Below, in pieces: positions 10,529-40,816 of a stretch of 64,000 nt of DNA. A program made the position numbers and the translations under genes. The DNA lies in contig QHNT01000055.1 of the NCBI GenBank assembly GCA_003218515.1, positions 10,644-74,643 on the forward strand. Reading direction: 5' to 3'. Position 1 is the first letter of the stretch. Every line of letters starts with the position of its first letter. The DNA is from Verrucomicrobiota bacterium (GTDB taxonomy: Bacteria > Verrucomicrobiota > Verrucomicrobiia > Limisphaerales > AV2). Under the pieces are notes generated by a model. It worked only from the letters and a program-made list of their open reading frames with translations, had not been told where the DNA came from and did no database searches.

Positions 10529-11515
10529 CTATTTGACACTCCGTGCGCGGCACTCCCTGAAGAGCTCGGCAAACACAGGTGCGTAATGCTCGCGGAGCAT
10601 GATGTCGGTGTTGCAACCGTCCGGTCCGAAGTATTCCTCGGCGTGCTGCGCCACTGATCTCCACCGCAGTGGTTCATTGCCAGAGCGCACCCATTCTTTG
10701 CACGGCAAGAACAGGCTGACACGGCCCGCGAAGTGACCGGGTGTGTAGCGACGCGCCGCCGCAATCGTGGCGCGCTCAACCTTGGCGCGCAGGACCAGCA
10801 CTGAATCCGGCTCGGCAGGACGCTCAGCAGTTCGTTGCGCCTCGTGGTTGCGCAGTTTCTCGGCGATGTACAACCGCCGTTCCCTGGAGGACCGCGATGC
10901 CAGCGCCCGGGTGTGCGTGATCACTCGCGCCACCTGATCCACGAGTTGCTGCCGCAGTTGCGGCAGCAACCGGTACGAGGTCGGATAAGGGGCGCCAAAC
11001 AGGGCGAGAAAGCTGATCGCCGCGCGTTCCTGCAGGAGTTGGCGCCCCAACTCGAAAGCGATGGTGCCGCCGGTGCAGAAGCCGGCGATGATGTAAGGTC
11101 CGCCCGGTCGGAACGCGCGGATCTGGGCTGCGAAGTACGCCGCGAGGTCCTCGATGCGGGTGAGCGGTTCGCTCTGGCCGTCGCGACCGGGAGGCTCGAG
11201 CCCGTAGAACGGCTGATCGTCGCCCAAGTGCCGCGCGAGAGCGCGGTAGCAGAAGACGTCGCCGTTGTGCCCGGCCACGGCAAAAATGGGGGTGCGCTTC
11301 CCGCGCGGCTGCAGCGGCACGATGGCGCGCTGCTGCTGAGCAAGCGCTCCGGCCGAGTGCAGGAACTCCAGGATATCGTTCTTGCGTTGCTGCAACTGAT
11401 CGCGCAGCTCGGGTGTCAGCGCGTCGGCCGGAGCATTACACCGCAGCCGATCGCCGTCGGCCCAGACCTGGATATCCCGGCGGCGCAACTCAGCGAGCAA
11501 GGCTGGCACCCTCAT
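10529..11515 (-). CDS. Stand-alone thioesterase with N-terminal TubC-type beta-hairpin docking domain; nucleophile motif GxCxG
   Basis: ATG at 11515 overlaps the NRPS stop (ATGA). MRVPALLAELRRRDIQVWADGDRLRCNAPADALTPELRDQLQQRKNDILEFL looks like a TubC_N docking domain. The alpha/beta-hydrolase TE core PIFAVAGHNGDVFCYRALARHLGDDQPFYGLE...IIAGFCTGGTIAFELG has Cys (codon 11075-11077) where GxSxG Ser is expected. Confidence 0.8.
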   Translation of the reverse strand: MRVPALLAELRRRDIQVWADGDRLRCNAPADALTPELRDQLQQRKNDILEFLHSAGALAQQQRAIVPLQPRGKRTPIFAVAGHNGDVFCYRALARHLGDDQPFYGLEPPGRDGQSEPLTRIEDLAAYFAAQIRAFRPGGPYIIAGFCTGGTIAFELGRQLLQERAAISFLALFGAPYPTSYRLLPQLRQQLVDQVARVITHTRALASRSSRERRLYIAEKLRNHEAQRTAERPAEPDSVLVLRAKVERATIAAARRYTPGHFAGRVSLFLPCKEWVRSGNEPLRWRSVAQHAEEYFGPDGCNTDIMLREHYAPVFAELFRECRARSVK

Positions 11516-30799: not shown

Positions 30800-31882
30800 T
30801 CACCGTCTGGCTGACGCCACGGCCCGGTTCACTGAGGAGATGGCTGGAATGGAAAGGCGGTCGGAGGACGCGAGAAGTCGAATGGACCTGCCCTCGCGTG
30901 TAATATCCTCATAGCAACGCTTCAACTTTTGAGCCACACTCAACGTCGAAAGGTCCTCGAGCCGCGTTCGACAGTCGAGACGCTTGCCGCGCTGCCGAAC
31001 CAGACCAAGCTTTGCGGCCAGTTCTGCTGGCTGAGGCCGCGCCACATAACAGCCTTCAACGCCTTCGATTCGCTCGGCAACGTCTCCCACGTCAACCGAG
31101 ACCACGGGAAGGCCGCACGCCAGGGCTTCTTTCACAATAGTTGGTGATCCCTCGTGCATCGACGTGAGAAGCAAAACATCGCTCGCATTAAGCCAGACCG
31201 GCACTTCCGCATTTGGTATCGCGGTCAGGAAATGAAGCTCCGACGGACGCACCGAATTGTTCAATTGCGCGACGGCATCTTTTGCCAGCCATGGGCGCTT
31301 CACCGGGTCGCCGTTGCTGGACGCGAACAGCACGTGGAAGGACTCGGTACCCCAGCCCAGCCGGCGCTTGCAGGCAAGCGGATCCATGGGCTTGAAGCGT
31401 TCCAAGTCCACGCCACACGGGATCACGCGGACTTTGTCAGCCGTGGCGGCGCCGTTCAAAGCTCCTGTCAGATGCCGCGCCACGACGATCACGCCCTCGG
31501 CCGCTTTTGCCGCCCTTCTCGAGCAATGCACCCCGTAGCGTGAAATTATTTTCCGCACGCAGCCGGAAAGATTCTCGCCCAGTAAATCCGAACCATGGAA
31601 AGTCACCACGAGCGGGCGGACATGGTGACGGCGCACGATCTGGTCCGCCATAACTCCGCCATACATCACGTGAATTGCCTCGGGCTCGAACTCGGCGACG
31701 GCATCGTTGATTTTGCTCCGCAGCCGATAGTACGCCGAGGGTCCCTCGGCCTGTCGATCGACAAACAAAACGCGCACGCTCAAGCCGATAGCGCACAGAC
31801 CCTTGACCTGTTCCTGCACAAAGACACCCCTGGCTGGGAACGCCGGCGACGGGTAAATATTTGTGATGGCCAGGATTCGCAT
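30800..31882 (-). CDS. Glycosyltransferase family 4
   Basis: ATG at 31882 inside ORF 30800..32017. MRILAITNIYPSP... N-terminus and the C-terminal ...LLLTSMHEGSPTIVKEALACGLPVV (E-x7-E region). Confidence 0.8.
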   Translation of the reverse strand: MRILAITNIYPSPAFPARGVFVQEQVKGLCAIGLSVRVLFVDRQAEGPSAYYRLRSKINDAVAEFEPEAIHVMYGGVMADQIVRRHHVRPLVVTFHGSDLLGENLSGCVRKIISRYGVHCSRRAAKAAEGVIVVARHLTGALNGAATADKVRVIPCGVDLERFKPMDPLACKRRLGWGTESFHVLFASSNGDPVKRPWLAKDAVAQLNNSVRPSELHFLTAIPNAEVPVWLNASDVLLLTSMHEGSPTIVKEALACGLPVVSVDVGDVAERIEGVEGCYVARPQPAELAAKLGLVRQRGKRLDCRTRLEDLSTLSVAQKLKRCYEDITREGRSIRLLASSDRLSIPAISSVNRAVASARR

Positions 31883-31904: not shown

Positions 31905-33335
31905 TCACCTGGGCACGTCCATGCCCGCGACGGGGTGGAAGGGCTCCTCGAATCCGGGCTCTCGACCCGGACGCCGGCCATTCCTCTTGTCCTTGCCCTC
32001 ACTCCCTGCGCGTGCATCCTTAAGCGGGGGTACGCCGCCAGTAAACTGTCCCAGTTGTGGCTGGTATTCAGGGACAGCGCATTTCAAGAACCATTTGAAC
32101 TCGTCCGGCCGCAGCTGATCTATTTGCTCAACCAATTCGAGCACGAAGGCGCGGACCTGTTCGTAGGGCAGAGGTTCACAAAGCAATCGCATGATCTTGG
32201 GATGCCGAGTGCCGGTGATTCTCTCGCCTCGGTAGCTGAGCTCTTCGAACAGTTTTTCACCGGGACGAAGCCCGGTAAACTCAATCCGAATATCCTGATC
32301 GGGAGTGAAACCGGAAAGCTCGATCAACTGCCGTGCCAGGTCCAGAATCCTGACCGGCTTGCCCATATCCAGGGTGAAAATTTCCCCGCCAGATCCGAGC
32401 GCGGCGCTCTGCAAGACGAGGCCCACGGCCTCCGGGATGGTCATGAAATACCGCACCACATCCGGATGAGTGACGGTGACCGGTCCGCCGGTGGCAATTT
32501 GTTTGGTGAAAATCGGAACGACGCTGCCGGAGGATCCGAGCACGTTGCCGAACCGGACCGCCATAAAGCGGGTGGCTCCCGGCTGGTTGACGTGGAGCGA
32601 CTGCACACACATTTCCGCCAGTCTCTTGGTTGCCCCCATGACACTGGTCGGGTTAATGGCTTTATCGCTTGAAATCAGGACGAAACGGTCGGTCGGGTGT
32701 TTTGCGCATGTCTCGGCGAGCCGCAAAGTTCCCAGCGCGTTGTTTTTGACGGCCTCGCCGGGTTGCGTTTCCATCATGGGCACATGCTTGTGGGCGGCCG
32801 CATGAAAAATGACCTGGGGATGATAGTGCTGGAAAATATAGTCCACTCGCCGTTGATCCAGAATATTCGCCACCAGAGGCACGACCGCTTCGCCGCAGCT
32901 GCAATGCATCAAGTCCTGTTGGATTTGAAAAAGTTGAACTTCAGATTGCTCTACCAGCAGCAGACGACGCGGAGAATAACCGGCGATTTGCCGGCACAGT
33001 TCGCCGCCAATGCTTCCGCCGGCGCCCGTCACCATCACCACGCGATCCCGTAGAAGCTGTTCAATGTCGTCGGTGGCCAGCCGCACCTGCTCCCGGCCCA
33101 GCAGATCTTGAGCTTCCACGGACCGCAACTGGCTCACCTTGGCCTGGCCGGTAGTGAGTTCGTAGATGGAGGGGACGGTGCTGAATTTGATTTGGAGCCG
33201 CTGCTGAGTCTTGTTCCGCAGTGTAATGCTGGACGTAGAAGGGAACCTCGGGTCTCGGGCCGACCAGACCCGCGCCGATGATTCCCGCGCGTCGCGCGCG
33301 TTGGCGGGGCAGGCTTGGCGTGCGGGCGGTGGCAC
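31905..33335 (-). CDS. CapD/WbpM/PglF-type polysaccharide biosynthesis SDR (nucleotide-sugar 4,6-dehydratase) catalytic domain; N-terminal membrane part detached
   Basis: Homology begins near 33190 (...IKFSTVPSIYELTTGQAKVSQLRSVEAQDLLGREQV), then VMVTGAGGSIGGELCRQI...SSDKAINPTSVMGATKR. Codons upstream of ~33200 are an out-of-frame read of the 59-nt patch and the membrane module. Confidence 0.75.
   Translation of the reverse strand: MPPPARQACPANARDARESSARVWSARDPRFPSTSSITLRNKTQQRLQIKFSTVPSIYELTTGQAKVSQLRSVEAQDLLGREQVRLATDDIEQLLRDRVVMVTGAGGSIGGELCRQIAGYSPRRLLLVEQSEVQLFQIQQDLMHCSCGEAVVPLVANILDQRRVDYIFQHYHPQVIFHAAAHKHVPMMETQPGEAVKNNALGTLRLAETCAKHPTDRFVLISSDKAINPTSVMGATKRLAEMCVQSLHVNQPGATRFMAVRFGNVLGSSGSVVPIFTKQIATGGPVTVTHPDVVRYFMTIPEAVGLVLQSAALGSGGEIFTLDMGKPVRILDLARQLIELSGFTPDQDIRIEFTGLRPGEKLFEELSYRGERITGTRHPKIMRLLCEPLPYEQVRAFVLELVEQIDQLRPDEFKWFLKCAVPEYQPQLGQFTGGVPPLKDARAGSEGKDKRNGRRPGREPGFEEPFHPVAGMDVPR
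33211..33269. repeat. 59-nt copy of an internal sugar-transferase gene segment, embedded in the CapD gene
   Basis: 57/59 identical to 34727-34785 (only aa vs cg differs). Encodes LVGPRPEVPFYVQHYTAEQ on the minus strand. Confidence 0.95.
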
Positions 33336-33720
33336 GAGTGCGCGCCTGGCGAAACGCCAGGCGGATGGCGGTCAGCCCGAGGATGGAGAAACTGAAGTCG
33401 ACCAAAACCACGCTCCGTGGCGGCGCGTAATCCGAGCCCAGATTCGTGGAGATCCCGAACACGATGAAACTCGTGGCGAGCAGAACCCAGAACAGCCGCG
33501 AAAAATCCGGCAGGCTGAAATAACCCACGAGCACCTCGAACTGGCGCAATCGCCACAGACAAACCAGCTTGAAGCCGATGACCCAGGCGAACACGGGCAG
33601 AAACGTTCGCTCGGCTTCCGGCGGCACAGCAAAGTCGAATCGAAGTTGATACCCCAACCACAGACTGCCGACCAACCCGGCAGCGTAGGACAGGACAAGG
33701 CAGATGCGAGTAAAGCTCAT
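33270..33720 (-). pseudogene. CapD/WbpM-type N-terminal membrane module (4 TM + start of GxGxxG), separated from its catalytic domain by a patch and a frame change
   Basis: ORF 33061..33720. MSFTRICLVLSYAAGLVGSLWLGYQLRFDF...RRAGIIGAGLVG is paralogous to residues in the C-terminal half of the 33782..35434 product. It then runs into the 59-nt patch and nonsense. Confidence 0.6.
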
Positions 33721-33781
33721 GGAAATGTATCCCCGTTAAACAGTTGAGACAGCCGTGACGCCAGGAGGCGTTAACGATGGA

Positions 33782-35434
33782 TCACGAGGTCTGTTGCCGT
33801 CCCCAGAATTTGATCGGGCAACTGACCGTATAGAATCTCAAGCCGGTTTGGCGGAGCAGTTCATCCAGCTCACGGATTCGCTCCACAGGAGCGCTGGGCA
33901 TGGCGATGACCACTTCGTCGAGTTTTTCGCTCCAGCCGTCGAGCAGACATTCAGGCATGCCGACCACGGGCACTTCGTGGATGCGCTTCTGCCATTTCTG
34001 AGAGTCATCGTCGAAGAAAGCGACGATGACCCGGCCGAATTTCCTTTTGACGATCAGCTCCAACGCGAGTTTCGCGCCCGTGCTTCCGGCCCCGATGATG
34101 CCGACTCGCGCCGGCGGATCGACAGACGCGTCTTCCTCTCCCGCCGAGCGCTCGCGCCACAGCCGCAGCAAAACGCGGAAGCCACTGAGCAAAGAAAGCG
34201 ACAAGAGAAAATCGACGAGAATGAAGTTCCGCGGAGGGCTGCCCGCGCCGGCAGCCCACCAGGCGAGCAGACCGAGAGTAGCCAGGCCCAGCGCGGTGCC
34301 GACTTGCCGCAGTTCGGGAAAACTGAAGTAGCTGAGCAATCCCCGGCACTGATTACGCCACGTCAGGCACGCAAGCTGCAAGGCGAGCACCACGGAAATC
34401 TCACGCCAAAACTGAAGCGCGGACATTGCCGGTGGCACGAAATCGTAAACCAGTTGGCAGGAGAGCCAAAAGGATGCCGCCAGGATGATTCCATACGTTG
34501 CCAGCACGCCGATCCAATACGGACAGACGGTTCGCACAATGATCCAGGTATCGCTTAACAAGTTCGCGCGCAGGGCGTATTCCCGATTGAGCGCCAGCTT
34601 TCGCGGCATGCATTGCTGAATGTAAAACTCCTCCAGGTTGTCCGCGTTTCCCAGCAACACCTCCTCGTCGCGGAAACACAAAGATGCCAGATCGGTGATC
34701 CCGGGCTTGCACTGCAAAATGTCACGTTGTTCCGCAGTGTAATGCTGGACGTAGCGGGGAACCTCGGGTCTCGGGCCGACCAGACTCATTTCGCCCGTCA
34801 ATACATTCCAAAGCTGTGGCAATTCGTCCAACTTCGTCCGGCGCAGGATCCGTCCGATCCAGGTAATGCGAGCATCACCGTCCTTCGTGACGAACGGCCC
34901 GACCTGCTCCGCCGCGGGCACCATAGTGCGGAATTTGCAGATTCGGAATGGTCGTCCCTGAAGACCAATCCGTATTTGCCGGTAGAAAATGTCTCCCCCA
35001 TCGGCAATTTTTATGAGCGCGCCAATCAGCAGAAATGCCGGGCTGAGCGCCACCAGACCGGCCAGGGAAAAAACAATGTCGTAGAGACGCTTGGCCGCGG
35101 GGAAGGCCCGGACCGCAGCGGTCTCATGCGCCGGCCCGCTCGTTCCCGGAAAGACGGGCCTTTCCACCCAACGCACCGCCGTGCGGAGAAAACTTGTCGC
35201 CCTTCGGAGCGTCGCTTGGGCGGTCGAGAGGATGGCGGCGATCGGGCCAGGGACGGAGGCCGCACAAGGTTGCCCATTTCGCCTCGCCATCTGCCTGGAG
35301 GCGTCCCGGTTTACGAAGCCGGGTCGCCACCGATGTCTGCGCGGCCGGATTCGGAATGCGTTTGTCTGCGGCTGTAATTCGTTCATACGGTCGATTGAAG
35401 GTTGCAGGAGAATCCGCCAGCGGCGGACTTTCAC
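33782..35434 (-). CDS. Bacterial sugar(-phosphate) transferase domain fused to a CapD/WbpM-type membrane + Rossmann-like N-module
   Basis: Bac_transf motifs: KRLYDIVFSLAGLVALSPAFLLIGALIKIADGGDIFYRQIRIG..., KFRTM, DELPQLWNVLTGEMSLVGPRPE. Next come 4 TM segments, then VGIIGAGSTGAKLALEL...VAFFDDDSQKWQKRIHEVPVVG...DEVVIAMPSA. The true start is uncertain. Confidence 0.75.
   Translation of the reverse strand: MKVRRWRILLQPSIDRMNELQPQTNAFRIRPRRHRWRPGFVNRDASRQMARRNGQPCAASVPGPIAAILSTAQATLRRATSFLRTAVRWVERPVFPGTSGPAHETAAVRAFPAAKRLYDIVFSLAGLVALSPAFLLIGALIKIADGGDIFYRQIRIGLQGRPFRICKFRTMVPAAEQVGPFVTKDGDARITWIGRILRRTKLDELPQLWNVLTGEMSLVGPRPEVPRYVQHYTAEQRDILQCKPGITDLASLCFRDEEVLLGNADNLEEFYIQQCMPRKLALNREYALRANLLSDTWIIVRTVCPYWIGVLATYGIILAASFWLSCQLVYDFVPPAMSALQFWREISVVLALQLACLTWRNQCRGLLSYFSFPELRQVGTALGLATLGLLAWWAAGAGSPPRNFILVDFLLSLSLLSGFRVLLRLWRERSAGEEDASVDPPARVGIIGAGSTGAKLALELIVKRKFGRVIVAFFDDDSQKWQKRIHEVPVVGMPECLLDGWSEKLDEVVIAMPSAPVERIRELDELLRQTGLRFYTVSCPIKFWGRQQTS
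34727..34785. repeat. Source copy of the 59-nt segment, inside the sugar-transferase domain
   Basis: Encodes SLVGPRPEVPRYVQHYTAEQ, part of the conserved transferase core. 57/59 identical to 33211-33269. Confidence 0.95.
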
Positions 35435-35462: not shown

Positions 35463-36710
35463 TTATCTCGGGATAATGGCTTCCTTTTGCTCGGCCGCCG
35501 AAACGCCCGCGCCTCGGACTGCCAGGCGCGAACGGCCGATGATTTTCTTCAGGGTCCGACAGACATACTCCACCTCATCAGAGGTCATGTCCGGGTACAG
35601 AGGCAGGCTCAATAACTCCGGGTAGAGGGTTGCGGAACATGGACAGTCCGATGGCTCGTAGCCGAACATGTGGCGGTAATAGGGATGCATATGGAGCGGC
35701 ATCCAATGCACACTGGTGCCAATGCCAGCGCTCTTCATTTCGGAAATCACCTCCGCACGATCGACACTCAAACGGTCCAACCTCAAGCGGACAGAGTAAA
35801 GATGCCAGGAATGGATGCGGTTCGGCATCTCCTTCGGCAAGATCAACTCGTCCACCTCGCTGAGATACTCGGAGTAAAGTCGCGCCCACTGCGTTCTCTT
35901 CTCGTGCAACCGATCCGCTTTGCGGAGTTGATGCAATCCAATGGCCGCAGCGGTGTCGGGGAGGTTGTATTTGTATCCCGGCGCGATGATCTCATAGCGC
36001 CACGAACCCTCCGCGGTGTAGCGTTTCCATGCGTCGCGCGAGATGCCGTGCAGCGACATGATCCGCATGCGGTCGGCGTGCTCCTGGGATTCCGTGCAAG
36101 CCATTCCTCCCTCCCCGGTCGTGATGGTTTTATTCGCGTAAAAGGAAAAGCAGCTGATCTCGGCTTCGGTTCCAACAGTCTTCCAAGGCGATCCTGCGTC
36201 GTCGCGGTAGTACGCGGGACAGCAGTGAGCGGCATCCTCAATGATTTTCAAATCGTAGCGCTCGGCCAAGGCGGTGACGCCGGCGATGTCCCCGATCTGC
36301 CCTCCATAATGGACGGGGATAATCGCCGTGACTTCTTCGCCTCGCGCGAGGGCGGCTTCGATTCGCCGGTCGACATCCGCGACGTCGAGGTTGAGGTCCG
36401 CCGCCCGGCAATCGACCAGCAGCGGCGTGGCGCCGAAATAGCGGACCACCTCAGCCGTGGCCGCAAACGTCATCGTTGGCACCACGACCGTTTGGCCGGC
36501 CTTCAATCCGACCGCTTCCAGCGCCAGATGCAGCGCGGCGGTGCAGGAATTGACCGCGACGCCGTGAGTGTGCCGTATGTAGCGGGCAAACTCCGTCTCA
36601 AACTGTTTTGCCTTCGGACCGGTCGTCAGCCAACCGGTCCGCAAACAATCCACCACCTCATTGATTTCCGCCTCGCCGATACTCGGCTTGTAAAACGGGA
36701 TCGAGTGCAT
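35463..36710 (-). CDS. DegT/DnrJ/EryC1/StrS-family PLP-dependent sugar aminotransferase
   Basis: 415 aa. MHSIPFYKPSIGEAEINEVVDCLRTGWLTTGPKAKQFE... and ...SFYANKTITTGEGG (PLP Lys context). Confidence 0.85.
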   Translation of the reverse strand: MHSIPFYKPSIGEAEINEVVDCLRTGWLTTGPKAKQFETEFARYIRHTHGVAVNSCTAALHLALEAVGLKAGQTVVVPTMTFAATAEVVRYFGATPLLVDCRAADLNLDVADVDRRIEAALARGEEVTAIIPVHYGGQIGDIAGVTALAERYDLKIIEDAAHCCPAYYRDDAGSPWKTVGTEAEISCFSFYANKTITTGEGGMACTESQEHADRMRIMSLHGISRDAWKRYTAEGSWRYEIIAPGYKYNLPDTAAAIGLHQLRKADRLHEKRTQWARLYSEYLSEVDELILPKEMPNRIHSWHLYSVRLRLDRLSVDRAEVISEMKSAGIGTSVHWMPLHMHPYYRHMFGYEPSDCPCSATLYPELLSLPLYPDMTSDEVEYVCRTLKKIIGRSRLAVRGAGVSAAEQKEAIIPR

Positions 36711-38679: not shown

Positions 38680-39618
38680 TCAGATAGATTGTGGGCTTTG
38701 GCGAAGCGCACTCCTCCGCTTATCAACCTGCCGATACGCTCTTCCTGATCCGTCCGGGTTAGCCAAAACTCCTCGCAACCCTGCCAAGGCAACCTTTAGT
38801 TCGATTCGAGTCCGGGTGGATTCTCCGAAGAGCTGAATGCGGGGGAGCCGCCACAGCGCAGAATGGCTCTCGGCCCATACTGGTTCCGTTGTCATGACGG
38901 TGCTGGCCCCACATTGCAACGCGTGCTGCGCCAACTCCGGGCTGTAATTCCCGTTTGGAAAAGCGAAGGTTTTGCACGGAGCACCCAGTTCGGAGCTTAC
39001 TTTTGCGAGACTCTCTTCGATCTCCGCGAAGGCCCTCTCTCTCGTTTCACGTATGAGGATGGCGTGTGTCAAGCCGTGGGCGCCGATAACGAATCCACGC
39101 CGACTCAAGCTTCGCGCGTCCTCCCAGGACATCGGCCGAACGTCATCTGATTCCATTTCCGGCCTGACTCCAAATTGAGCGCAGGCTCGATCCAGCCGCT
39201 CGTTCAACGCGGCGAAGGCCAGTTGCTTCAGCGTTTCCAGTTCAAGCCCGGCCGGACACTGGCCGAGCGCGCGCACCAACGCCTTGCGACGGTCGAACCA
39301 GAGGGCTGTCCCGTTCGTGAGAAAGGCGGTTGTGACGTAAAAAACCGCCGGCACTCCGAGGCGTTCCAACTCCGGCGCGATCTCGGTGACATTGCAGCGC
39401 TTGCCATCATCAAAGGTTAATAGGCAAAACGGCCGTCTGCCCGGCTGTGCCAACCGGCGGGGCAGTTCGTCAAGGCGGATAAAGTCAAACCACCGCCCCA
39501 GCACTCCGACATGCCGGCGGGTCTGAGCTGACGTCAGGTCGTGTTCATTGATGATCACGCCACCGCGCTTCACCTGCCTGACCAGCGCCAGCAAGAACGA
39601 CATAGCAATGGGAAACAT
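38680..39618 (-). CDS. Polysaccharide deacetylase (NodB-homology) family protein
   Basis: ATG at 39618 inside ORF 38680..39786. ...FCLLTFDDGKRCNVTEIAPELERLGVPAVFYVTT...GAHGLTH. Confidence 0.7.
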   Translation of the reverse strand: MFPIAMSFLLALVRQVKRGGVIINEHDLTSAQTRRHVGVLGRWFDFIRLDELPRRLAQPGRRPFCLLTFDDGKRCNVTEIAPELERLGVPAVFYVTTAFLTNGTALWFDRRKALVRALGQCPAGLELETLKQLAFAALNERLDRACAQFGVRPEMESDDVRPMSWEDARSLSRRGFVIGAHGLTHAILIRETRERAFAEIEESLAKVSSELGAPCKTFAFPNGNYSPELAQHALQCGASTVMTTEPVWAESHSALWRLPRIQLFGESTRTRIELKVALAGLRGVLANPDGSGRAYRQVDKRRSALRQSPQSI

Positions 39619-39667
39619 TTGGAGTCCTGTGCGAGGAGCAACCGCGACGTGGCGATGGTGACCTGGA

Positions 39668-40816
39668 TCAGACCGAGGTGCCCTGAACCACCCTGGTCGT
39701 CGAATGGCGCGTCGTCGGAACGGCCAGTTGATAGAGACCGCGCAGATACACGGGAAGCCGGTGGAGGCAGTGGTTTTCTTCAACATCGGACCGAGCGCAT
39801 TGCCCCATTTCCCTTCTGAGTTCGGAATTCTTCACAAGCTTGACCAGTGCCGCGACGAGACCTTCGAGATCGTCAGGCTGGAGCAAAAAACCCGTCTGGC
39901 CGTGCCGGACAATACCTGACACCCCTCCCACCTTCGTGGCCACCACGGGCAACCCGCAGGCCATCGCTTCGAGCAACACGTTGGGTGTGCCTTCGAAATC
40001 TGAAGTGAGGACGCAGACCGCCGCCTCGTGGTAAGCCGACCGGATATCCGAGACACCGCCTCTGAATTGAAGAAAGTCCGGAAACAACCCGAGGCTCCGG
40101 GCTTGACTTTCCAACGCCGGCCGAAGGTCCTCGTTTTGGCATCCTGGCCCAACTATCAGACCTCTTACGTCCAGACGGAAATCCGACCGCAAATGGGCCA
40201 GGATCGAAATGAAACGGTCCAACCTCTTCTGTTTCACCAAACGTCCCACTGCGACCAGGGTGAGCGGTCCCGTCGAACAGGGGCTTGAAGGCTTGAACCA
40301 GTCCGTATCCACGACGTTCGGAAGGAAATAGAGCCGCGAGGCCGGCACACCCCGGGCGATGGCGTATTTCATGGCGACCCGCGAGTTCACCGCAATCGTT
40401 CTGGGCAGGTGCAAATTCAGCCAGCCTCCCAAAGGTCCACTATCACTCACCTCGGTACGTCCGTTGTTGCGCATTGCGCCGATCCCGCTCGCCTGCAAAA
40501 GCCACGCCGCCACACTGACATAAGCATTCGCGTAAAAATGCTGGCTCTGCAGGACATCGGGCGGGTTTTTCCACAGTTCTTTCAGGACCCGAAAGAGCCG
40601 CGTCAGGCGTGAGGGTTGGTCGCCCACCCAGGTGACGCAAATTCCCAAGGCCTTTATCTTCTCCTCCCAGAATTCGCTGTGATCCAGTGACAGCAACCGA
40701 GGAGTGGCTCCCGCCTGGCAGAGCGCCTGGAGAACATAAAAAAGTTGGCGTTCCGCTCCCCCATGCTCCAGCGTTCCTGCCAAAAAGCACAGCTTCAGTT
40801 TGGAAAGATTGCTCAT
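39668..40816 (-). CDS. Glycosyltransferase family 4
   Basis: ATG at 40816 inside ORF 39668..41065. KLCFLAGTLEHGGAERQ... and ...VLTSDFEGTPNVLLEAMACGLPVVATKVGG. Confidence 0.8.
   Translation of the reverse strand: MSNLSKLKLCFLAGTLEHGGAERQLFYVLQALCQAGATPRLLSLDHSEFWEEKIKALGICVTWVGDQPSRLTRLFRVLKELWKNPPDVLQSQHFYANAYVSVAAWLLQASGIGAMRNNGRTEVSDSGPLGGWLNLHLPRTIAVNSRVAMKYAIARGVPASRLYFLPNVVDTDWFKPSSPCSTGPLTLVAVGRLVKQKRLDRFISILAHLRSDFRLDVRGLIVGPGCQNEDLRPALESQARSLGLFPDFLQFRGGVSDIRSAYHEAAVCVLTSDFEGTPNVLLEAMACGLPVVATKVGGVSGIVRHGQTGFLLQPDDLEGLVAALVKLVKNSELRREMGQCARSDVEENHCLHRLPVYLRGLYQLAVPTTRHSTTRVVQGTSV

Follow-up and report, generated by a model that had tools for sequence, protein, structure and literature searches.

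In pathways of the PglF/PglE type, a dehydratase supplies a keto-sugar to an aminotransferase, and a DegT aminotransferase and a phosphoglycosyl transferase (PGT) encoded beside a dehydratase are the pattern of a di-N-acetylbacillosamine (diNAcBac)-type pathway. The uridine diphosphate N-acetylglucosamine (UDP-GlcNAc) 4,6-dehydratases PglF, CapD (Cap5D, Cap8D) and WbpM are built as one polypeptide, in which a four-helix membrane bundle is followed by a Rossmann-like domain of unknown function (DUF) and a catalytic short-chain dehydrogenase/reductase (SDR) domain. PGTs are divided into large, small and bifunctional classes (Dodge et al. 2024, PMC10942596; PMC11626204), and in both publications the module made of a four-helix bundle and a PF13727 domain is described in N-terminal position only. 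PF13727 is reported to mediate dimerisation and to bind uridine nucleotides, and it was noted as a puzzle that PglF-like dehydratases share this accessory module with PGTs (Dodge et al. 2024, PMC10942596). The subject of this work is a CapD/PglF-type gene of an uncultured soil bacterium of the Verrucomicrobiota, located in a stretch of 64,000 nucleotides (hereafter the window: positions 10,644 to 74,643 of contig QHNT01000055.1, assembly GCA_003218515.1). The middle of this gene is replaced by a short patch of PGT sequence (Table 1). A recent microhomology-mediated double template switch, recorded on a contig that is a mosaic of strains and leaving CapD split or inactivated, is favoured here as a moderately probable explanation.

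Orthologues of the gene in related loci have exactly the architecture of PglF, CapD and WbpM. In the related contigs L002, L003, L027 and L030 (related contigs are designated by L numbers) the gene is full length, with CoA_binding_3 and Polysacc_synt_2 domains on one polypeptide of 653-661 residues, and in every related locus with a complete gene downstream of the transferase gene, that gene is an intact full-length CapD. The window resembles these systems in that a membrane module and a complete SDR domain are kept and in that the gene adjoins those of a DegT aminotransferase and a PGT. It differs from them in its middle domain (residues 155-226), in place of which there are 16 foreign codons; the frame is broken, the DUF core is gone, the SDR domain lies in another frame, and the one-polypeptide layout was not found in the window in any single open reading frame (ORF). 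The closest reference is L030 (ENA ERZ27315204), which encodes an intact CapD of 661 residues; upstream of the patch, 8 of 7086 nt distinguish it from the window, and downstream 1 of 3750 nt. With nine differences in 10.8 kb, L030 is essentially the same strain as the window. L010 and later L026 had been considered as progenitor haplotype and were dropped when L030 proved to be the same strain; likewise, single-nucleotide polymorphisms downstream of the patch that had been read as private decay were found to be common to L026 and L030.

Positions 33211-33269 and 34727-34785 of the window are direct repeats identical at 57 of 59 positions. The chance expectation for such a repeat is 0, as no match of this kind occurred in 100 dinucleotide-preserving shuffles of the window. 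Within the transferase gene the repeated segment encodes LVGPRPEVPRYVQHYTAEQ. Compared with the intact CapD gene of L030, 219 native nt are swapped for 49 nt of transferase sequence, so that the gene is 170 nt shorter overall and its frame is shifted. The segment lost from CapD comprises residues 155-226 of 661 (TALAQEF...AKRVAEIV) and parts of both flanking codons. The resulting 219-codon ORF (33720-33061, minus strand) has no Pfam match; it starts with a CapD-type membrane module that runs to GIIGAGLVG, continues with the transferase motif PRPEVPFYVQHYTAEQ and closes with 38 out-of-frame codons. In another frame, bases 33061-33210 encode the native linker into the SDR domain. Polysacc_synt_2 is found in this different frame, in ORF 33335-31905, with profile positions 1-290 of 293 matched, and GTG 33335 is the only upstream start in the frame of this part. 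The patch has thus removed the core of the Rossmann-like domain and shifted the frame, which leaves a 219-codon membrane fragment with a junk tail and a catalytic domain that lacks a proper start.

Both native parts of the gene are well preserved. The 5' part, which is conserved in more than 15 loci, matches L030 in all of its residues, and the SDR part matches the intact CapD of L030 at 434 of 435 residues and contains no stop in 434 codons. The NAD(P)-binding motif TGAGGSIG is found at residue 61 of the SDR fragment and SSDKA, which we take to be the catalytic S/T-D-K motif by comparison with PglF, at residue 180. When the SDR domain was tested for relaxed constraint, no signal was obtained. 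No second gene of the Polysacc_synt_2 type able to compensate for the loss was found in the window by tblastn.

Table 1. Features of the transferase/CapD region. Coordinates are positions in the window.
Feature	Coordinates	Strand	Remarks
DegT/PglE-type aminotransferase gene, upstream neighbour in the conserved locus	35463..36710	-	Pfam DegT_DnrJ_EryC1, E 2.2e-115
PGT with C-terminal four-helix/Rossmann-like module, longest ORF (550 aa)	33782..35434	-	P0165/PYJ62907.1
Monotopic PGT catalytic core	34526..35092	-	Bac_transf, residues 115-303, E 1.9e-56
Transferase segment homologous to the patch, CGC (Arg) allele on this contig	34727..34785	-	57/59 identical to the patch
Four-helix membrane bundle and Rossmann-like DUF at the C-terminus of the transferase, paralogous to the N-terminal module of CapD	33803..34519	-	
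Native 5' CapD/PglF-type part: membrane module and first DUF strand, to GIIGAGLVG	33259..33720	-	154/154 residues identical to L030
Patch	33211..33269	-	10-nt left microhomology (33269-33260), 47 nt, 2-nt right microhomology
Left microhomology of the patch, 10 nt	33269-33260	-	GTCTGGTCGG
Core of the patch, transferase-only sequence, 47 nt	33259-33213	-	
Right microhomology of the patch, 2 nt	33212-33211	-	AA
Out-of-frame tail of the 5' CapD fragment	33061..33210	-	38 junk codons, TGA stop
Contig-private substitution	33205	-	Coding-strand T->A, Leu->Gln; 6 nt past the right junction
Native 3' CapD part: linker and Polysacc_synt_2 SDR catalytic domain	31905..33210	-	E 1.6e-112
GT4 glycosyltransferase gene, downstream neighbour in the conserved locus	30800..31876	-	Pfam Glyco_trans_1_4 and Glyco_transf_4; likewise in relatives

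The junctions of the patch are marked by microhomology. At the left junction, transferase and CapD sequence share the 10-mer GTCTGGTCGG; at the right junction they share AA, with a displaced GCGGAA close by. Beyond these matches of 10 and 2 nt the two genes have no similarity at the junctions. The private substitution at 33205 is the sole difference from L030 across the 3.75 kb downstream. The patch shows the features of a template switch, namely microhomology rather than extended homology at both junctions and an insert identical to a template 1.5 kb upstream, as present in L026 and four other assemblies. Models of template switching have been worked out mainly in eukaryotes and in Escherichia coli. 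The locus is like cases of fork stalling and template switching/microhomology-mediated break-induced replication (FoSTeS/MMBIR), or of synthesis-dependent microhomology-mediated end joining, in the size of its microhomologies, in the short same-orientation copy from a nearby template, in the loss of the intervening native DNA and in the point change next to a junction. In contrast to a simple case of this type, the template allele is not now present in cis. Two other routes were considered and rejected: (i) homologous gene conversion, because homology ends after 10 nt and the core of the transferase shares none with the middle domain of CapD; (ii) homology-facilitated illegitimate recombination of incoming DNA, because a transferase segment beside CapD flanks does not occur on any natural fragment.

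Much of this had been set out in an earlier note made from the window sequence. Its description of the near-identical repeat from the sugar-transferase core was borne out, as was the reading that the patch follows directly on GIIGAGLVG, puts the SDR domain out of frame and eliminates the middle module, so that CapD is split or inactivated. Of the two recent events it had offered, a template switch agrees with the microhomology-only junctions and with flanks that match the allele of the same strain; gene conversion had to be abandoned.

Both mismatches between the two copies of the repeat correspond to one codon, which is TTC (Phe) in the patch and CGC (Arg) in the transferase gene of the contig itself. 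The patch is identical at all 59 positions to the TTC transferase allele of L010/L028, L025, L026, L027 and L029, which derive from several samples. In nearly all other relatives the codon is CGC (Arg), the ancestral state; in L007 it encodes Cys. TTC is linked to about ten other derived transferase sites in the contigs that carry it, and the TTC allele is therefore older than the patch. Given this age and the complete identity, the patch was copied from a TTC transferase. The reverse route, in which TTC of the other strains was derived from the patch, was rejected by the same argument. The TTC transferase and the CapD 5' haplotype of the window occur together in L026; a genome therefore exists in which a simple intragenomic switch would give exactly this patch. 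Further, several of the few differences between the window and L030, at 40323-40251, 37509 and 34572, are alleles of TTC strains. Because the patch matches the TTC allele and not the CGC allele of its own contig, the contig is, as judged from these alleles, a mosaic of co-occurring strains. To judge from sample names and from the identical NCBI protein PYJ62907.1, the window may belong to the Angelo meadow data set. The consensus genomes from these meadow metagenomes were assembled by IDBA_UD, and homologous recombination within populations has been documented for them (PMC7305173).

Allelic variation extends beyond the patch. In five related assemblies the tandem change CGC->TTC at 34755-34756 results in Arg227Phe, four residues after GPRP (GPRPEVP-R/F). 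Haplotype breakpoints among related contigs were located at 33738-33444 and at 35598-35577; L026 has the transferase haplotype of the TTC strains and the CapD 5' haplotype of L030 and the window. Derived alleles of TTC strains are concentrated at 35.6-33.7 kb, and outside this interval identity across the locus exceeds 99.5%, a pattern that indicates short-tract recombination, or mosaic assemblies, in this population. In L027, a TTC contig, the deacetylase/GT4 segment (positions 1-2600, approximately window 38700-40500) is only 78-80% identical to the window, and its polysaccharide deacetylase (312 aa) was called as fragments of 132 and 169 aa. This segment represents further strain-level variation or damage at the same locus.

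From the junctions, the allele identities and the conservation of the locus, all of which are directly observed, we infer an event in vivo with the following course. At a stalled fork or during break repair, a DNA 3' end would have halted after GTCTGGTCGG within the dehydratase gene and re-annealed at the identical 10-mer in the transferase gene, 1.5 kb upstream on the same strand. Copying of 47-49 nt of the transferase would have been followed by return to the dehydratase gene 219 nt further on, via the 2-nt match. The event would be placed most simply in an L026-like genome with the TTC transferase and the same dehydratase haplotype; the mosaic contig would then result from consensus assembly or from real recombination.

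That the lesion occurred in living cells is considered likely, an estimate which includes the slim share for a lesion that is not null. Several observations weigh against it or against its proposed effect. The patched junction had no exact match in metagenome_contigs and genome_contigs, and the 18 loci checked across the site all have the native junction and lack the patch. L030 and L031 read through the site as intact CapD, and a search of 5.8 billion clusters with the 219-aa fragment returned intact relatives only and no protein with the patch; the lesion is specific to one contig among the assemblies examined. The donor allele is found neither in cis on the contig nor on L030; for the event to have happened in vivo, the contig would in addition have to be a mosaic consensus, or recombination would have to have taken place within 1.46 kb. 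A chimera formed in vitro or in silico would likewise contain DNA of two strains. Finally, the SDR domain is intact and Shine-Dalgarno (SD)-like sequence precedes possible internal starts, so that loss of function is presumed rather than observed; most structural studies of PglF-type enzymes use constructs that lack the N-terminal domains (Dodge et al. 2024, PMC10942596). Part of these observations would be accounted for if the patch were an artefact that exists in no cell, formed as a chimeric library molecule or by an error of assembly or automated curation that joined DNA of two strains. The CapD flanks would then stem from an L030-type strain and the transferase sequence from a strain with the TTC allele. 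A donor allele from other strains instead of the contig's own transferase, an allele confined to this contig among more than 20 assemblies of the population (the same strain included) and zero sequence decay around the patch all fit such an origin. The titles of the sister bins L005 and L008 end in '_curated', which presumably denotes automated local re-assembly of scaffold errors. An artefact is nevertheless regarded as unlikely, albeit not negligibly so. Overlaps of 10 and 2 nt are judged unable to make joins in a k-mer graph with k >= 20; as even the 10-nt overlap seems too short for such a de Bruijn join, reads containing both junctions would have existed. A double switch inside 50 nt is most uncommon in PCR chimeras, and a chimera would have had to win over the correct path in a contig that is 64 kb or longer (87 kb). 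The transferase site is 1.46 kb off and thus past the read-pair span of about 0.8 kb (PMC7305173), and therefore mate recruitment in local re-assembly provides no explanation. In addition, the window sequence is without any N.

A real lesion need not be a null allele. The SDR domain could be translated alone from an internal start as a soluble, anchor-less protein without the regulatory Rossmann-like domain, and the pathway would continue, possibly unregulated. Candidate starts are TTG 33128, which follows the SD-like AGGTGA, and re-initiation near TGA 33061. N-terminally truncated PglF-type enzymes are active in vitro. Near-identity of the SDR part to the intact allele, retention of TGAGGSIG and SSDKA and the presence of candidate starts with SD-like sequence are in line with a functional product. 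Structural work on PglF-like enzymes was done mostly on truncated constructs without membrane domain and DUF (PMC10942596). However, a null allele of very recent origin would be just as intact, no candidate start is conserved in that role, and a start at ATG 33035 would cut part of the first Rossmann strand. A gene split at this point was found in no relative checked, and activity of the isolated domain is considered improbable. It is very hard to believe, by comparison, that the patch came, as the earlier note implicitly assumed, from the contig's own CGC transferase, with CG changed to TT later or by error-prone copying and with a merely coincidental identity to the TTC allele. The second private substitution, at 33205 beside the junction, makes error-prone synthesis plausible, but the same dinucleotide change would be needed twice, and TTC is a derived state common to five assemblies, linked to the other derived sites and older than the patch.

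Under the favoured double template switch, we infer loss of function: judged from the damage to the gene, cells with the patched allele would most likely lose the first committed step of the pathway and hence the glycan. Variation and loss are common in surface-polysaccharide loci, and the lesion adds one more case to a type of mutation and a type of gene that are both known. As one strain-level, probably inactivating event in a surface-polysaccharide gene of an uncultured soil bacterium, its value is mostly illustrative. If real, it represents a clean bacterial deletion with templated insertion for which the junctions, the template allele and, in L030, the 'before' state of the same strain are all identified. 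It also shows that, in a metagenome bin, positions at which the copies of a repeat seem to be mismatched may represent the allele of a different strain, which calls for caution when events are dated by repeat identity.

A separately damaged CapD gene was seen in another soil contig, L013 (WNGC01087267.1, approximately 985-990 and 1320-1360). It has an in-frame deletion of 102 nt at the end of the Rossmann-like domain and in the linker (P0122 ...LELEEV|TTGQAKV...) and a second deletion of about 90-120 nt within the SDR domain which shifts the frame. The damage in L013 reflects either recurrent loss of CapD or poor assembly.

The PGT gene upstream of CapD encodes a monotopic PGT. The NCBI protein PYJ62907.1 starts at Met17 of the 550-codon ORF, and the conserved core begins at approximately 35104. 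The core matches Bac_transf and contains KLDELPQ at residue 201, with the Asp-Glu pair, and GPRPE at residue 220; both motifs are invariant in an alignment of 38 sequences. The roles of the Asp-Glu catalytic pair and of the PRP motif are presumably those known from PglC. CoA_binding_3 was detected by Pfam at residues 402-537. An AlphaFold2 (AF2) model of 440 residues (predicted local distance difference test, pLDDT, 78) consists of a PglC-like core, helices at 196-318 and a small beta/alpha domain at 332-434. Foldseek matched it to the structures of PglC (8g1n, E 6.6e-11, TMt 0.70) and WbaP (8t53), and to 3nkl, deposited as UDP-D-quinovosamine 4-dehydrogenase (TMt 0.69).

Like WbaP and PglF, the transferase thus possesses a four-helix bundle and a PF13727 accessory module. 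Unlike in large PGTs of the WbaP type, the order is catalytic core (115-303), helices and CoA_binding_3, and N-terminal placement of the module was not found in this protein. The C-terminal 246 residues of the transferase are 39% identical to the N-terminal 240 residues of the neighbouring CapD (E 9e-43), which substantiates the older duplication postulated in the earlier note. As stated there, the transferase ORF continues into a CapD-type membrane module and middle module; it does not stop exactly at the point homologous to the resumption of CapD, its end lying about 20-25 residues beyond.

Search with the 550-aa protein returned 2751 scored relatives at E <= 1e-10. The best 120 of these have 361-550 aa, are 58-95% identical and align collinearly over approximately 80-97% of the query; those with names belong to Verrucomicrobiota/Pedosphaera bins. 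An SDR domain on the PGT polypeptide was found neither in the window, where the ORF ends after the DUF, nor in the best 120 relatives. In a search of 1.84 billion representatives, about 21 cluster representatives of 440-575 aa showed the same collinear layout. The combination of a transferase with a CapD-type module is an old, stable architecture that coexists with intact CapD. The proposal that a new transferase-CapD-N fusion had arisen was therefore not upheld, nor was the suggested link between the module missing from CapD and the one fused to the transferase, since the complete downstream genes of relatives are intact CapD. It had been reasoned that an identical arrangement with intact frames in relatives would mark a stable functional architecture; this holds for the fusion, which relatives share together with an intact CapD, and not for the patch, which none of them shares.

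At least 17 representatives of approximately 600-950 aa from the same search align collinearly with the first ~430 residues of the query. Pfam scans of five of the longest revealed an additional Polysacc_synt_2 domain in each; these five are complete transferase-dehydratase fusions of 814-953 aa. The window protein is collinear with the first ~430 residues of these bifunctional proteins and ends before the SDR domain. The fusions are P0201, P0213, P0225, P0229 and P0197, of which P0229 ends in a response-regulator receiver domain. On the basis of these alignments, the transferase/CapD pair probably goes back to a complete PGT-dehydratase fusion whose central module was duplicated before the gene underwent fission. 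Paralogous four-helix/PF13727 modules are thus present both in a transferase and in the dehydratase that would feed its pathway, and full fusions exist elsewhere; this bears on the question, raised by Dodge et al. 2024, of why these unrelated enzymes share the module. As the same domain holds WbaP homodimers together, the paralogous modules might by analogy hold transferase and dehydratase together as a heterodimer, and the patched allele would be a natural deletion of precisely this interface and regulatory domain that frees an internally started catalytic domain. This idea is considered quite doubtful; if it were true, the patched allele would be a natural experiment on the role of the shared domain.

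The region opens a surface-polysaccharide locus of the Wzx/Wzy type in a population of soil Verrucomicrobiota, and every gene in the region is carried on the minus strand. The same locus is present in more than 20 related soil assemblies. The order in related loci is aminotransferase, transferase with C-terminal module, CapD of 653-661 aa, GT4 and a large PKS_DH/FkbM/acyl carrier protein (ACP) protein; the position of the aminotransferase gene is the same in L002, L003, L027 and L030. Other ORFs around the lesion encode Wzx, Wzy, a chain-length/kinase-type protein, glycosyltransferases, AsnB and a deacetylase, and genes for polyketide synthases (PKS) and nonribosomal peptide synthetases (NRPS) are contiguous with them.

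The polysaccharide genes adjoin the PKS/NRPS genes without a break at 10529-30711 (minus strand). This stretch encodes a 1355-aa PKS_DH/FkbM-methyltransferase/ACP protein, an acyl-CoA dehydrogenase, AMP-binding enzymes, a TubC-docking thioesterase, a 1558-aa KS-AT-KR-ACP protein and a 1710-aa NRPS-type protein that combines three Condensation-domain stretches with one adenylation and one carrier domain. The presence of polysaccharide and PKS/NRPS genes side by side suggests an acylated amino-sugar glycoconjugate as their product. The 1355-aa protein, which is the first in the stretch, has a counterpart at the same position in L003 and shorter matches in L008, L011 and L012.

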